DNA from: Candidatus Thorarchaeota archaeon
GTDB lineage: Archaea; Asgardarchaeota; Heimdallarchaeia; Hodarchaeales; Hodarchaeaceae
Assembly (NCBI GenBank): GCA_048882505.1
Contig: JBHLRO010000052.1
Coordinates: 1-7,675, forward strand
DNA: 7,675 bases
Direction: 5' to 3'
Numbering within the stretch: position 1 is the first letter of the stretch; the number at the start of each line of letters is the position of its first letter. Position numbers and translations under genes: made by a program. The notes beneath the pieces are model-generated. The model saw only the letters and a list, made by a program, of their open reading frames with translations. It was not told the origin of the DNA and made no database searches. Shown here piece by piece: positions 1,950-7,675 of this stretch.

Positions 1950-3611
1950 TTGTGTCACCCCTTGGAAAACGTGGATCGTTCTTCTTACTCGGGTCAAACT
2001 TCTGACCAACAGCTGGATCTACACGGATCAACTCTCCAAGTCTATTGGTACATATTAACCCAGCGAAAAGCTGCCTTTTTTTATCAAGATATTCAAAAAG
2101 TTATGGGATTTTCCAGTAAAAGCTCCGCCATTTATCAATTAGAGAAGCTATGTGAACTTGAGGTTCTTCAAAAAACAGGAAATGGATATGTAATCGTGTC
2201 CAGGCCCAAACCGCGGGCTCTTCAGTCATATTTCTTTATAAATTTTATACTAATACCCAAAGCTTTCATATATGGTGTTATGCTTTCAATAATCAATTTT
2301 TCAGTTTTTCTGCTGTCCCTAAATGGTTTAGATTTTCTTACTATTCTTTTGGCCAGTATTCCAAATATGGGGGCCATAATGCTGTTTTTTAGTGAAGCGA
2401 TACTTGTTTGGAAGAATCGGCCTAAACCACCTCACACAAAAAGCATATTACAGAGTCTTAGTATGAATTTTAAAAAAAGGAATAACAGCTCTAGATCAGC
2501 AAAAAAAAATCAAGTAAAAAAATCGAGCATGACCAAAACCACGACATTCACCCGATTTCTATCACAGAGAATCCCGATATCACGAACCACAAAGCGATTT
2601 CTTCTTGCTATGGTGATAATCCTTTTCCTAACTGGCCAAATTGTCCTGATTGGAACTTTGACAGGTTTTTTTGAGGGAAGATTTACAGCCCGAATAACCA
2701 CAAATACCCAAATTGAATTCCCTGACCCCTTGCCTATTCAATTACGCCCGACTGGATATGACATACAAGGATCGTCTTTATACGCCCTCGGACACTTTAC
2801 AAATGGAACAACTGGAAGATTTTTATTTCATTTTGAGTTTAATAGTGATTTAACTACTTTGGAGGCTTTTTACAGCTATAAATTCCCCTCTCACCTTCCA
2901 ATTATGGGGATCGGTCTTGCTTTTTACAATGCTTCCTATTGGGCGCTGGCAGAGGTGGAAAATCAAACCATGCCTCAACCACTCTATTGTTTCACAAAGG
3001 ACATGTCTTCCATTCAGAATTATTCCCTTGGGGTTCCCCCGATAGTACATAATATGAATTTAAGGTTCAGTAGAAGAGATATTGTGATTTGGAATGGTTC
3101 GCTGTGGATCTTAGAGTGGTGGTTAAAACCTGGCGATGACCGATTCCGTAGTAATGTAAGCATTTACTCGATGAAAAATTTTGCACGCGTGAAAACGTTT
3201 TTTGTCCCGATTAAGGCGGAGGAATTTTCCTTTGATTCCCAGGGACAGCTGTGGCTCTGTGAATTTGATCATTATCCGGAGACTTACGCTGCTTTCATGG
3301 CTATAGCGCCTGATGACGGCACCATATTGCGCTCGATTCGACCTCTTACATTCCCTTCTTTTTTTCCATTAAATCATGATAGAGATTCCTTTTTTTCTTA
3401 TTATCCCATTCTATTTAATGATTCTTTTTTGGTACCAATTGCAGACGACCTTATAACCGAGTTATGGGGTTTTCAAATCATTTCTTATGAATTGGACCCC
3501 TCATCAAGGATTACTGATTTCTTGGGGCTGCTTCTTATCACCGTTGGTCTTGAGGGAGGGGGACTTACCTTCTTATGGTATGTTTCTTCGAAACGAAAAA
3601 GATTGAAATGA
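1950..3611 (+). CDS. Membrane-bound winged-helix transcription regulator fused to a large extracellular, probably beta-propeller-like domain
   Basis: 553 aa from TTG; the true start may be a few codons later. N-terminal wHTH-like segment (LHGSTLQVYWYIL...DIQKVMGFSSKSSAIYQLEKLCELEVLQKTGNGYVI), two TM helices, a K/R-rich linker, a third TM, a repeat-like beta-rich domain with NGT/NAS/NQT/NYS/NGS/NVS/NDS sequons, a C-terminal TM and a basic tail. Confidence 0.75.
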   Translation: MCHPLENVDRSSYSGQTSDQQLDLHGSTLQVYWYILTQRKAAFFYQDIQKVMGFSSKSSAIYQLEKLCELEVLQKTGNGYVIVSRPKPRALQSYFFINFILIPKAFIYGVMLSIINFSVFLLSLNGLDFLTILLASIPNMGAIMLFFSEAILVWKNRPKPPHTKSILQSLSMNFKKRNNSSRSAKKNQVKKSSMTKTTTFTRFLSQRIPISRTTKRFLLAMVIILFLTGQIVLIGTLTGFFEGRFTARITTNTQIEFPDPLPIQLRPTGYDIQGSSLYALGHFTNGTTGRFLFHFEFNSDLTTLEAFYSYKFPSHLPIMGIGLAFYNASYWALAEVENQTMPQPLYCFTKDMSSIQNYSLGVPPIVHNMNLRFSRRDIVIWNGSLWILEWWLKPGDDRFRSNVSIYSMKNFARVKTFFVPIKAEEFSFDSQGQLWLCEFDHYPETYAAFMAIAPDDGTILRSIRPLTFPSFFPLNHDRDSFFSYYPILFNDSFLVPIADDLITELWGFQIISYELDPSSRITDFLGLLLITVGLEGGGLTFLWYVSSKRKRLK

Positions 3612-4991: not shown

Positions 4992-5026
4992 GAAACGAGC
5001 GATCCAAAGGTCAGGTGGTATGAGGA
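4992..5026 (+). repeat. Directional intergenic repeat, degenerate copy E
   Basis: GAAACGAGCGATCCAAAGGTCAGGTGGTATGAGGA aligns ungapped at 26/35 with copy D (7408-7442) and sits at the equivalent position before the duplicated gene. Confidence 0.7.
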
Positions 5027-5049
5027 GAATAAAAAGCAATCGAAGGTGT

Positions 5050-5256
5050 GTGGGAAAAGGGAGCGATCTGGTGTCTGGTACCGCTGATCTGATTGAGGGT
5101 AAGAGTGAAGTAAGGTGGGATTAAATTGGCTGTTCAAAAAGAAAATTTGAGGAGGTGGGATTTCAAAGCCATCCTGGGGGTAGGCCTGACTATGGGAGCA
5201 TTTGTGATCCTTGTACTCCCAACACAGGGAGTGGGCAGGTTCGACCTGTTAGGATT
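5050..5256 (+). repeat. Long direct repeat, copy 1 (leader plus 5' part of the zinc-finger gene)
   Basis: 207 bp ungapped alignment to 7469-7675 (offset 2419) with 13 mismatches, about 94% identity. Confidence 0.95.
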
Positions 5257-5464
5257 TCTCATTCGTGCCGGAATCGGCTTGGTTACGCTGATCCTAGGGA
5301 ACTATTTACTCATCACACATGCGCCCTTCCTGCGTGTGGAACAAGGATGGTGGAAACCAGCAGAAATCTGGATCTGTCGGAAATGTGGATTTGGGAACAA
5401 AAGAACCAGAACCCATTGTGTCAAGTGTGGCGTGGAATTTCAAGCTGTCAATCGTAAGAGGTAA
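5126..5464 (+). CDS. Small 2-TM membrane protein with a C-terminal RanBP2-type zinc finger
   Basis: TTG start preceded by SD-like AAGGTGG. Two hydrophobic segments. WICRKCGFGNKRTRTHCVKC exactly matches W-x-C-x2-C-x3-N-x6-C-x2-C. Four of 7 coding differences versus the second copy are synonymous in this frame. Confidence 0.85.
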   Translation: MAVQKENLRRWDFKAILGVGLTMGAFVILVLPTQGVGRFDLLGFLIRAGIGLVTLILGNYLLITHAPFLRVEQGWWKPAEIWICRKCGFGNKRTRTHCVKCGVEFQAVNRKR

Positions 5465-5478
5465 TAAAGATAAAACAG

Positions 5479-5520
5479 CCGTGTCGAGAGGAGCAATCCA
5501 ATCGTCAGATAGTGTTAGGA
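5479..5520 (+). repeat. Directional intergenic repeat, copy B (core at 5498-5509)
   Basis: 29/30 identical to 7413-7442, and 37/42 identical over 5479-5520 versus 7401-7442. Confidence 0.9.
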
Positions 5521-5632
5521 GGTAAAAAAAGAATAGCAAAGGATGGATAGAGCGGAAAGAAGAAGATAAAAACCAAAACTTTTGTTATAATTGTGAAGCA
5601 AACGGGGAATTTAAGGAGGAAAGTGACAGAAT

Positions 5633-6121
5633 ATGCACACAATCAGCGAACCTGTTTTTAAAAAAGAAAAAGAACTCGAAAAAACAATCGGCAAAGCAAT
5701 CACATTCATCTTATCCCAAAACGCAAATATTGTTGACTTTTTTGCTTTTCATGGAAGATTCGATTTGTGCGTGCTCATTCATAATAACAGAAAAGTTACA
5801 TATACCAGATTTATCGAAGTTAAGCATTTTTCAAGGGCAAATTCGCGAATAGGGCTAAATGGTGCTCAAGTAGATTTACTCATTCACAATTCCGAAGATC
5901 TACTGTGGTTAAATAAGCATATCACATGGATTTTTGGAGACAGTACCAAAGCTAAAGGAAGTAACCGCTTTCAAATGCTGAATAACGTCCAGGCAAAAGG
6001 TTGTGTGTATAATAAAGTCAGGAGAGGAAAACAGAATAATTTTTCTTTAAAAAAAGTTATGGAGGCTCCTTTATTTTGGAATGAGCTCCTGAAAGAATTG
6101 AACAGATTCCTTGTCGAATAG
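5633..6121 (+). CDS. Stand-alone PD-(D/E)XK superfamily nuclease-like protein
   Basis: 162 aa with an N-terminal helix Glu (EKELEK), strand Asp (RFDLCV) and E-x-K (FIEVK) in canonical order. AGGAGG lies upstream at 5614-5619. Confidence 0.65.
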   Translation: MHTISEPVFKKEKELEKTIGKAITFILSQNANIVDFFAFHGRFDLCVLIHNNRKVTYTRFIEVKHFSRANSRIGLNGAQVDLLIHNSEDLLWLNKHITWIFGDSTKAKGSNRFQMLNNVQAKGCVYNKVRRGKQNNFSLKKVMEAPLFWNELLKELNRFLVE

Positions 6122-6122
6122 G

Positions 6123-6129
6123 TTTTTTT
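6123..6129 (+). terminator. Putative archaeal oligo(T) terminator
   Basis: T7 tract 2 nt after the nuclease stop codon. Confidence 0.4.
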
Positions 6130-6332
6130 CCATAAAGTATCTTGATAATCCTTAGCTATTATCTTCGAATCTTCCCCGATATAGGATTTCTTACGATCGA
6201 TTATCAGTATACGTAACTATTGCTGTGAGAAGATAGGGCAATAAACGACAACTGCACCTTCTTTTTTATGATATTTCCTATAATTTCATGATTTTACAAA
6301 ATAATTTAAGAAAACCATGCGAGTACCTTTAT

Positions 6333-6347
6333 AGTCCAATCGTCAGA
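6333..6347 (+). repeat. Directional intergenic repeat, short copy C
   Basis: AGTCCAATCGTCAGA is 15/15 identical to 7417-7431. The flanks diverge on both sides. Confidence 0.8.
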
Positions 6348-6405
6348 ATGATACTGAATCGACCCTATCAATACACATAAATACATGGATAGTATAACAG
6401 CAACC

Positions 6406-6630
6406 ATGGCACATAAAACGATCACCATTTCTGAAGAGGCTTATAATCTCTTAAAAGCGAATAAAAGGGAAAATGAATCCTTTACCGAAGTTATTAAGAG
6501 AATTCTAACTCAGAAAAGGAAAAAAGAAGAGTTAATTGAATGGCTATCGAGTAAAGAAGATTTATCAGACCTAGCTGATTCCGTGGAATCAGTATTTGAT
6601 GAAAGAAAGGAGATAAATCTCAGAATTTAG
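6406..6630 (+). CDS. vapB: VapB-type antitoxin (DUF217/PF02697-like archaeal family)
   Basis: MAHKTITISEEAYNLLKANKRENESFTEVIKRIL fits the KTITIS.EAY..L...K...ESFS.VI.RL family pattern and lies directly upstream of a PIN gene. ATG 6406 is preferred over the track start at 6385. Confidence 0.85.
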   Translation: MAHKTITISEEAYNLLKANKRENESFTEVIKRILTQKRKKEELIEWLSSKEDLSDLADSVESVFDERKEINLRI

Positions 6631-6646
6631 ATTTCAGGTGGCAGCT

Positions 6647-7033
6647 ATGATTTTTGATACGGATTACCTCATAGAAATTCTAAGAAATGACAAGGAAACA
6701 ATGAAACATCTAAAAGGGTTACTCAAACAGCCTAATGAATTATTTATAACACACGTAACGCTCTGGGAGTTATATCAAGGTGTGTATAAATCTTCAAGAA
6801 TAGAATATAATCTAAGGCAAACAGAAGAACTCATACAATTTTTCACAATAATCCCATTTAATCAAGCAATTGCTAGAAGATTTGGCTTTTTGATGAATGA
6901 GCTTAGAAACAAAGGAACTCCAATCGGTGTCATGGATACGTTAATAGCAAGCATTGCATTGGAGGAAGATCTCCCTCTAGTCACGAAAAATCGGTCCCAC
7001 TTCGAGAAAGCGGGTATTAGAATAGCTGAGTAA
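6647..7033 (+). CDS. vapC: VapC PIN-domain ribonuclease toxin
   Basis: PIN acidic motifs IFDTD, TLWEL, MDTLIA and LVTKNRSHF. SD-like AGGTG at 6636-6640 favours ATG 6647 over GTG 6638. Confidence 0.92.
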   Translation: MIFDTDYLIEILRNDKETMKHLKGLLKQPNELFITHVTLWELYQGVYKSSRIEYNLRQTEELIQFFTIIPFNQAIARRFGFLMNELRNKGTPIGVMDTLIASIALEEDLPLVTKNRSHFEKAGIRIAE

Positions 7034-7079
7034 AATATCAAATCGCAGTCGGTTTAATGTTTCTTAAGTCAAGAAAGAC

Positions 7080-7404
7080 GTGTTGGATCTTTGAAAGGAA
7101 GGTGCCCTCAGTACGAGAGGAACGGGGTGTCGGCGCCTCTACTCTACCGGTTGTCCGGGTGGGCATTGCCGGGCAGGCACGCGCCACGGGATAAGCGCTG
7201 AAAGCATCTAAGCACGAACCCCACCTTGAAAAGAAAGATCCACTCTGCTTGTATCTGGAAAGACACAGGGGCTGGTGACGGCAACTGTGGGCAAGTAGAC
7301 GAGCGCTGGGGTAGAAGACCCCGTTGATAGAACGGCAGCGTACGCGTGGAGGCTTCGGCCGACATGTTTAACTGGCCGTCCCTAATCGCGCAAGGGCTGA
7401 CCGC
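7080..7404 (+). rRNA. 23S rRNA 3'-terminal segment only (domain VI, about E. coli 2625-2900), with no upstream 23S sequence in the window
   Basis: Sarcin-ricin loop AGTACGAGAGGAAC at 7110-7123, H97 GATAAGCGCTGAAAGCATCTAAGC at 7190-7213, H94 GGATCTTT (7085-7092) pairing with AAAGATCC (7234-7241), H100 GGGGTAGAAGACCCC, GTTGATAG, a cUUCGg hairpin, and CTAATCGCGCAAGGGCTGACC resembling a 23S 3' end. The ends are approximate. Confidence 0.93.
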
Positions 7405-7442
7405 GTTGAAATGAGCAGTCCAATCGTCAGATAGTGTTAGGA
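7401..7442 (+). repeat. Directional intergenic repeat, copy D (core at 7420-7431), abutting the 23S 3' end
   Basis: Reference copy for the alignments with A, B, C and E. Confidence 0.9.
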
Positions 7443-7468
7443 TGGAAAAGAATGGTAAAAAGGAAAGC

Positions 7469-7675
7469 GTGGGAAAAAGGAGCGGTCTGATGTCTGGGAT
7501 CGCTGATCTGATTGAGGATAAGAGTGAAGTAAGGTGGGATTAAATTGGATGTTGAAAAAGAAAATTTGAGGAGGTGGGATTTCAAAGCAATCCTGGGTGT
7601 AGGTCTGACTATGGGAGCATTTGTGATCCTTGTACTCCCAACACATGGAGTGGGCAGGTTCGACCTATTAGGATT
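7469..7675 (+). repeat. Long direct repeat, copy 2 (runs to the window end)
   Basis: About 94% identical to 5050-5256. Confidence 0.95.
7545..7675 (+). CDS. 3'-truncated paralog of the 5126..5464 TM/RanBP2-type zinc-finger gene
   Basis: TTG at 7545 gives MDVEKENLRRWDFKAILGVGLTMGAFVILVLPTHGVGRFDLLG..., open to the window edge. It is absent from the ORF track because it has no stop codon in the window. Confidence 0.85.
   Translation, partial: MDVEKENLRRWDFKAILGVGLTMGAFVILVLPTHGVGRFDLLG

Follow-up and report, generated by a model that had tools for sequence, protein, structure and literature searches.

How does the last domain of a 23S rRNA come to stand by itself, behind a toxin gene, at the end of an archaeal contig? 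The window (the whole stretch of DNA that was analysed, 7,675 bp, which is the entire contig C52) belongs to G000, a draft MAG of 83 contigs and 4.32 Mb that is 94.6% complete with 3.7% contamination; positions in this and other genomes are given below as genome:contig. In a cmscan search, positions 2721-2973 of the archaeal LSU rRNA model RF02540 aligned to window positions 7081-7391 with 222.8 bits (E 2e-67) against a gathering score of 50, which identifies archaeal LSU rRNA by both sequence and secondary structure. The same search of all 7,675 bp returned no other rRNA, and the 7 kb 5' of the match is free of it. The sequence-only reading had described a free-standing domain VI at this place, and that description stands, as helices H94 to H101 are all present. 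Domains I to V, which a functional complete 23S gene would carry contiguous with domain VI, are replaced upstream by vapBC. The features of the window, all on the + strand, are as follows.

433-472, +: partial copy of the trailer repeat (part of box A; nhmmer E 9e-7)
4992-5077, +: trailer-repeat copy without domain VI, 5' of a zinc-ribbon gene (iterative nhmmer E 4e-11; alignment)
5126-5464, +: gene for a small membrane protein with a C-terminal zinc ribbon (PF00641, E 2.8e-6, 26.9 bits)
5486-5543, +: partial copy of the trailer repeat (part of box A; nhmmer E 4e-8)
6385-6630, +: VapB antitoxin gene (PF02697, E 9e-14)
6638-7033, +: VapC (PIN) toxin gene (PF01850, E 8e-15)
7077-7391, +: free-standing 23S rRNA domain VI copy, H94-H101 with an intact SRL and an H98-type insertion at 7243-7298 (RF02540)
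7392-7417, +: 23S 3'-terminal stretch past the Rfam match, conserved in most free copies as well as in the genuine genes of G004 and G007
7418-7497, +: 23S 3' trailer, with box A at 7418-7442, a purine-rich spacer and box B at 7479-7497
7545-7675, +: start of a second zinc-ribbon membrane protein gene, cut by the contig end (from its translation)

The copy retains a nearly perfect fold. The H94 stem (GGAUCUUU/AAAGAUCC plus one U-A pair) and the SRL (AGUACGAGAGGAAC) are intact, as had been read from the letters, and 98 of the 99 consensus pairs of a 15-copy alignment are canonical, the sole exception being C·A at 7196/7214. This is one of two mismatches previously listed; the other, between A7141 and C7178, lies outside the predicted consensus, and its first position is invariant and its second nearly invariant in all copies, including those within genuine 23S genes. 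The pairs 7142/7177 and 7148/7171, which had been singled out as flipped yet paired, are C-G in the window and G-C in most congeners and are thus true compensatory flips. The H98-type insertion of roughly 55 nt is likewise present in the genuine 23S of the genus. Homology among the copies does not stop where the Rfam match ends: it crosses the 23S terminus and takes in roughly 100 nt of 3' flank, in the window via the processing-stem trailer to about position 7497. The stretch 7392-7417 would pair with the 5' end in an intact 23S (H1 region). At the other end, the copy had been thought to start at the domain V/VI boundary. The break is indeed close to it, but in the sister copies on C45, in G007 (copy a) and in G010 homology extends about 20 nt further 5', into H93, so that the break lies near the boundary and not exactly on it.

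The vapC stop codon lies 43 nt upstream of the domain VI copy on the same strand. The nearest solved relatives of this VapC are initiator-tRNA-specific (tRNA-fMet-specific) VapC proteins, and the VapBC module of the window is found in G002 and G012 at 85-87% identity without a domain VI after it. The PF00641 match of the zinc-ribbon protein falls just under Pfam's 27-bit cut-off; window 7469-7675 repeats 5050-5256, including the start of this gene, at 93.7% identity. Members of the family recur right after trailer repeats, in the window and at C47:5420-5758, C45:940-1215 and C45:1353-1673, and in G007 a zinc-ribbon protein also lies 3' of the genuine 23S trailer, its similarity to the window protein being weak and limited to the 27-aa ribbon alone. 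The ORFs at 560-1870 and 1950-3611 (436 and 553 aa) matched no Pfam or PADLOC family. Within the longer of them, a weak hammerhead HH9 match on the - strand (2342-2425; 20.7 bits against a gathering score of 52, E 0.2) lacks the catalytic core in its alignment and is probably due to chance. PADLOC found no match among the window proteins and one weak HEAT-repeat-type match, to a WD40 protein on the neighbouring contig C59, and a defence-island reading was dropped on this result. An independently assembled Logan contig is 100% identical to window 5386-6815 and stops short of the junction between VapC and domain VI. This short contig came from an identity look-up of VapB; look-ups of VapC (from two possible starts) and of two antisense ORFs inside domain VI copies returned nothing, and nor did exact-pattern scans for junction, lineage and domain V-VI patterns in sets of genome and metagenome contigs from which near relatives may be missing. 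Part of the cassette is contained in sequencing run SRR30758835.

Which 23S is the organism's own? Besides the window copy, the G000 bin has a complete gene on C57, a 5' part covering model 1-2078 at a contig end of C38 and, on C45, another fragment of domain VI. The C57 gene (307-3242) has no megablast match to the 23S of G016, G004 or G007 and shares at most about 72% identity with any of 150 Asgard genomes sampled, which rules it out as the main 23S of the organism; C57 is probably a foreign, mis-binned contig from another archaeon. The C38 23S shares 97.9% identity with its counterpart in G016 and 81-84% with those of G004 and G007. With C57 set aside as foreign, the organism's own 23S is of the C38 type with its 3' third unassembled. 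No further domain IV-V sequence was found in the G000 bin, model 2079-2987 of its own 23S being missing from the assembly. The sequence-only reading had proposed a whole-genome search for a main 23S locus, but this check misleads here, since the only complete 23S is foreign and the organism's own ends at a contig end. The same break at model 2078 recurs in G016. The smallest contig of the G000 bin is 2.5 kb, and a short, repeat-bounded 23S piece would probably have been filtered from it. Because the 3' part of its own 23S is absent, we infer the contiguity of domains V and VI in G000 from congeners. The C52 domain VI is 79% identical to the genuine copy of G007, and the 5' parts of the two species' 23S are 81% identical; this similar divergence indicates that the window copy is of the organism's own type. 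The 23S of the genus aligns to the Rfam model in pieces, with a break at model 1422/1423 (C38, G016:C9, G007:C9), and about 120 bases at G000:C38:187-306 are left unaligned between model 1783 and 1893; the unaligned stretches of the C38 gene may be expansion segments or small inserts.

The window copy has a twin in its own genome and relatives across the genus. C52:7075-7449 and C45:2134-1762 are 97% identical over 375 bp and 99% in the core (domain VI at C45:1810-2133), and the DNA upstream of the twin is unrelated to that on C52. The twin-bearing contig also contains a run of 100 N, a scaffold gap, within an ABC-transporter gene cluster at C45:5160-5259. Of 21 congeneric genomes, 14 contain domain VI as a free-standing unit, often in more than one copy: G012 gave 13 matches, G007:C8 and G001:C65 bear three copies each, and G013:C70 bears two. 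Nearly all copies start at the identical base and span model 2721-2973. Genomes sampled outside the genus but within the class gave, with one exception, at most one match, in keeping with an ordinary 23S; in G031 and G037 two neighbouring pieces were matched on the same contig. Elsewhere the copies follow genes for an HTH regulator, AbiEi or a beta-helix protein, or genes on the opposite strand, and in G013 and G001 an unrelated second PIN pair lies 20 nt upstream of a domain VI copy. A 44-nt scrap of domain VI between trailer repeats on G001:C65 (12679-12722 of the reverse complement, forward 2344-2387), 100% identical to part of a G013 copy, is an extremely truncated relic.

Two congeners reveal the normal junction. 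In G004:C44 the 23S is contiguous across model 1423-2973. On G007:C8, copy c, nearest the contig end, is preceded by genuine domain V of the same type as the 23S on G004:C44 and is therefore the real 23S 3' end; copies b and a lie 7.3 and 26 kb 3' of it on the same strand. With domains V and VI contiguous in both genomes, the junction in the genus is normal and the free copies are extras. The "single-contig" genomes G009, G015 and G006 contain no 23S and thus offer no closed reference.

The sequence that follows the 23S terminus ties the copies to a larger repeat family. Boxes A and B are also found in the trailers of genuine 23S genes. An antisense match to the trailer abuts the 23S 5' end at C38:2099-2179, and the C38 leader and C52 trailer are predicted to form a duplex of about 110 nt at -103 kcal/mol, compared with -73 ± 6 for shuffles. 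This pairing, together with the position of the antisense match, identifies the flank as the 3' strand of the pre-23S processing stem. Iterative nhmmer searches recovered 29 trailer copies in G000, each either by itself or preceded by a few tens of bases from the 23S end. Nearly all of them lie on six small contigs (C45, C47, C48, C52, C59 and C81) that are joined by 77-mer overlaps. The repeat variants are genome-specific, and arrays in relatives were located with genome-specific trailer queries: 22 co-oriented copies over 47 kb on G007:C8, of which the first is the genuine trailer; 14 in the last 40 kb of the 525-kb contig G010:C12; 10 on G013:C70; 7 on G001:C65; 3 on G018:C162; and 2 on G004:C44. 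The repeats are co-oriented and spaced every 1-6 kb, with a cargo of small GTPases, TA modules, transporters and surface proteins between them, and adjacency of the array to the genuine 23S is resolved in G007 and partly in G004. Repeat units in G007 start at several depths: some include all of domain VI, others roughly the last 35 or the last 15 nt of the 23S, and others the trailer only, which makes the domain VI copies the longest units of a single repeat family. Some domain VI copies have short T-rich palindromic hairpins (TTTCTTAGAAGAAA-like and AATTTTnnnAAAATT-like) inserted in conserved loops, and in many trailer copies such hairpins stand in for the stretches that would pair with the 23S 5' end; sites include L026 (G001:C65, 3491-3829), L018 (G003:C192, 1501-1847) and the trailer copies of L021 and L022 (G007:C8). 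These hairpins could be terminators or structural substitutes.

How the copies evolve can be read from their relation to the resident 23S. In a maximum-likelihood tree the copies cluster by genome and not by type: G007 copies a and b group with the genuine copy of that genome (support 100/98) on branches of 0.095 and 0.039, compared with 0.012 for the genuine copy. Broken pairs number none in the genuine G007 copy, five and seven in its free copies and 0-9 in free copies overall, and G007 copy b has a mutated SRL (AUUACAAGAG) and a 7-nt deletion. Double changes affect 38 of 99 pairs across the copy set; this covariation is for the most part inherited from the 23S of each host. A block consisting of the 3' end of AbiEi, domain VI and the trailer is colinear between G018:C162 and the region of G007 copy b, at a uniform 78.7% identity over 764 nt, so the junction is older than the split between the G018 and G007 lineages. 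Copy b is nevertheless 93% identical to the genuine copy of its own genome and 78% identical to its G018 orthologue, and this combination of an old junction with host-like sequence argues for gene conversion from the resident 23S. A block of 1.9 kb, made up of a 325-aa gene, VapBC and domain VI, is 94.9% identical between G001 and G013 and has trailer repeats at both bounds; the blocks next to it differ between the two genomes, which indicates that blocks are exchanged or lost between trailer repeats. Some free copies in old contexts are intact (one broken pair in G018, none in G013 b or G002). Gene conversion accounts for them, and selection on the RNA would do so as well. The common 5' limit of the domain VI copies would be explained only if they descended from one event.

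From this comparison of sequences, we consider it likely that window 7077-7497 arose by a recent, partial duplication of the 3' end of the organism's own 23S gene, lies within a genus-wide trailer-repeat array and is not part of a split gene. The duplicate would comprise domain VI, the end of the 23S and the trailer that supplies one strand of the pre-23S processing stem. The repeat family would derive from the 23S 3' end, with accessory regions that start at the genuine 23S trailer where this is resolved (G007); most repeat units retain the trailer alone and a minority, including the window copy, the whole of domain VI. The resident 23S would periodically overwrite the copies by gene conversion, and they would otherwise drift under relaxed constraint. 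Spread within the array may proceed by homologous recombination or unequal crossing-over between trailer repeats. The window copy would be dispensable for ribosome building, and its transcription, if any, would probably be as the 3' tail of a vapBC transcript. The earlier suggestion of a captured extra domain VI was right in that the copy is extra, and wrong in its source, which appears to be the organism's own 23S and not a foreign one. Retroposition of pre-rRNA 3' ends, which would give a shared 3' end and variable 5' truncation, ranks low as a mechanism, the copies being co-oriented and clustered with no reverse transcriptase seen. A box-B-like motif 5' of domain VI copies, considered as a secondary recombination site, proved inconsistent between copies by eye.

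It is also conceivable, if rather doubtful, that the recurring junction of 23S 3' end and trailer, in an array of at least 40 kb of exchangeable accessory blocks, represents an undescribed genome-plasticity system. The domain VI copy would then be its longest form or a by-product of it, the recombination behind the array would be neither that of an integron nor that of an integrase-driven island, and the 20-30 trailer copies, complementary to one pre-23S leader, might link rRNA processing with the array. The literature searched contained no published precedent for the arrangement, which is not proof of novelty.

Among the alternatives to a partial duplicate, we regard as unlikely a duplication of attachment sites, in which elements insert at the 23S V/VI boundary or in the trailer and carry or displace the 23S 3' end, like tRNA-targeting islands. 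The sequence-only reading had proposed a form of this, a 3' end displaced by an island, and its geometry holds: on G007:C8 direct repeats of the 23S 3' end (the genuine end and two copies, in the same orientation) flank accessory DNA 3' of the genuine gene. TA modules (VapBC, AbiE) lie beside several copies, the domain VI copies have their 5' limit in common, cassette content varies between related genomes, and mobile elements inserted beside the 16S gene have been published for Heimdallarchaeum (PMC8813620). What fails is the machinery. According to Pfam scans of ORFs between and beside the copies, none of the array contigs encodes an integrase, a transposase or another recombinase, and no element ends were seen. 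The one high-scoring tyrosine recombinase per genome (PF00589, six genomes) is single-copy, about 300 aa long, located elsewhere and presumably XerA. The cargo consists of ordinary cellular genes, the repeat units start at several depths instead of at a single core site, and the orthologous junction persists between species while its domain VI follows the host sequence. A functional stand-alone RNA, acting as an SRL decoy or substrate mimic for VapC, as a sponge for ribosomal proteins or translation factors that bind domain VI, or as a 3' module stabilising vapBC mRNA, is less probable still. The almost perfect fold with its intact SRL, the start 43 nt past the VapC stop on the same strand, the unrelated PIN pair 20 nt before a copy in G013 and G001, the local hairpins that substitute for stretches needing the 23S 5' end and the cleavage of the SRL by some VapC toxins (PMC5175351) would all suit such a role. 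The linkage to vapBC is not conserved, however, as the modules of G002 and G012 lack a downstream domain VI; the nearest characterised VapC relatives cut initiator tRNA and not the SRL, other copies follow unrelated genes, and copies decay, one of them in the SRL itself.

We give very little credence to a genomically split 23S, in which the main gene would stop at domain V and domain VI would be supplied in trans from the window, perhaps joined or docked via trailer-leader pairing. This was the first origin that the sequence-only reading put forward, and it draws on an own-type 23S contig with nothing past model 2078, on the lack of any other own-type domain V-VI in the assembly and on a native trailer able to pair with the 23S leader. 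Yet the break at model 2078 is a contig end that recurs in G016, and no complementary intervening sequences for trans-splicing were seen. A split gene would have a main gene lacking the piece and a piece that is unique. Domains V and VI are instead contiguous in congeners (G004:C44 across model 1423-2973 and G007:C8 copy c), which holds for the genus while the junction of G000 itself is unassembled; G000 has two near-identical copies, and relatives have many decaying ones. A comparison of domain VI sequences and a survey of related genomes had been proposed to settle the matter, and the twin at 97-99% and the copies in 14 of 21 congeners both speak against a split gene. The misjoining of a repeated rRNA segment to a non-rRNA contig is just as improbable. 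A draft MAG of 83 contigs, broken at repeats and with 77-mer overlaps between contigs, invites such a suspicion, and the VapC-domain VI junction of the window was not found in the other assemblies searched. Nevertheless, the junction has no shared sequence that could mislead a de Bruijn assembler, equivalent junctions with different flanks occur on C45 and in about ten other independently assembled genomes, and two of these junctions are conserved across species, at 95% identity in G001 and G013 and at 79% in G007 and G018.

In these Asgard MAGs, 23S pieces that stand alone are real parts of the genome and need not be chimeras, and they are no evidence for split rRNA genes. They help to explain why rRNA loci and their surroundings assemble poorly in this group. 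Binning based on rRNA can be misled, as the foreign 23S contig C57 in the G000 bin exemplifies. In a genus of archaea close to eukaryotes, tens of kilobases of variable accessory genes are punctuated by 23S trailer copies and anchored at the 23S where this is resolved. Only one lineage-type 23S was found per assembly, so the gene is apparently single, and exchange between copies and the 23S could affect rRNA evolution under these conditions. The genus offers an unusual and testable case of an rRNA gene whose 3' end seeds a repeat family and exchanges sequence with its copies.

Integrons and integrase-less attC clusters (CALINs) have been reported to be enriched in Asgard archaea (Ghaly et al. 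2022, PMC9668308), and the arrays resemble them in their length, in the short co-oriented repeats between small accessory blocks and in their TA cassettes. The repeat here, however, is a copy of the 23S trailer. In a search of 22 genomes for the integron integrase (TIGR02249), the best match reached 186 bits against a cut-off of 265, and none lay on array contigs; this best match in the genus is partial, within a 776-aa ORF at G001:C77:8755-9382. When ten repeat strands were folded as DNA, their z-scores against shuffles were +0.1 to +1.5, so that they form no attC-type single-stranded hairpins, and 73 array ORFs lie on the repeat strand versus 59 on the opposite one, so the genes are not co-oriented. 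The integrase below cut-off, the lack of hairpins and the mixed gene orientation rule out an integron or CALIN. Aloposons are a misfit as well, since they integrate at tRNA genes and carry giant genes (PMC8813620). The pairing of a PIN-domain toxin gene with an SRL-bearing RNA brings to mind VapC20 and VapC26 of Mycobacterium tuberculosis, which cleave the 23S SRL (PMC5175351), but the VapC of the window is closest to initiator-tRNA-specific VapC proteins and its orthologues have no adjacent domain VI. The islands and proviruses that duplicate tRNA and tmRNA 3' ends are similar in that direct 3' repeats bracket accessory DNA 3' of an intact gene and that TA cargo is common. The arrays differ from these in having no integrase or element boundaries and a repeat of hundreds of bases with several 5' limits, and the orthologous junction with host-specific sequence points to gene conversion and not to repeated integration.

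Naturally fragmented LSU rRNAs, such as the chloroplast 4.5S rRNA and the kinetoplastid and Euglena fragments, consist of pieces that are the only copy and are incorporated in ribosomes. They have in common with the window a discrete 3'-terminal LSU piece apart from the body of the molecule, whereas here congeners have a contiguous gene and the detached pieces are redundant and decaying. Fungal rRNA pseudogenes are reported as partial rRNA duplicates kept similar by concerted evolution (PMC5555474). They match the copies in that an extra incomplete rRNA gene lies near a functional one and is either homogenised with it or decays. The copies in this genus differ in that they stem from an apparently single 23S gene, consist of a constant terminal module of domain VI and trailer, and sit in a co-oriented array of 20-30 trailer repeats amid accessory genes.
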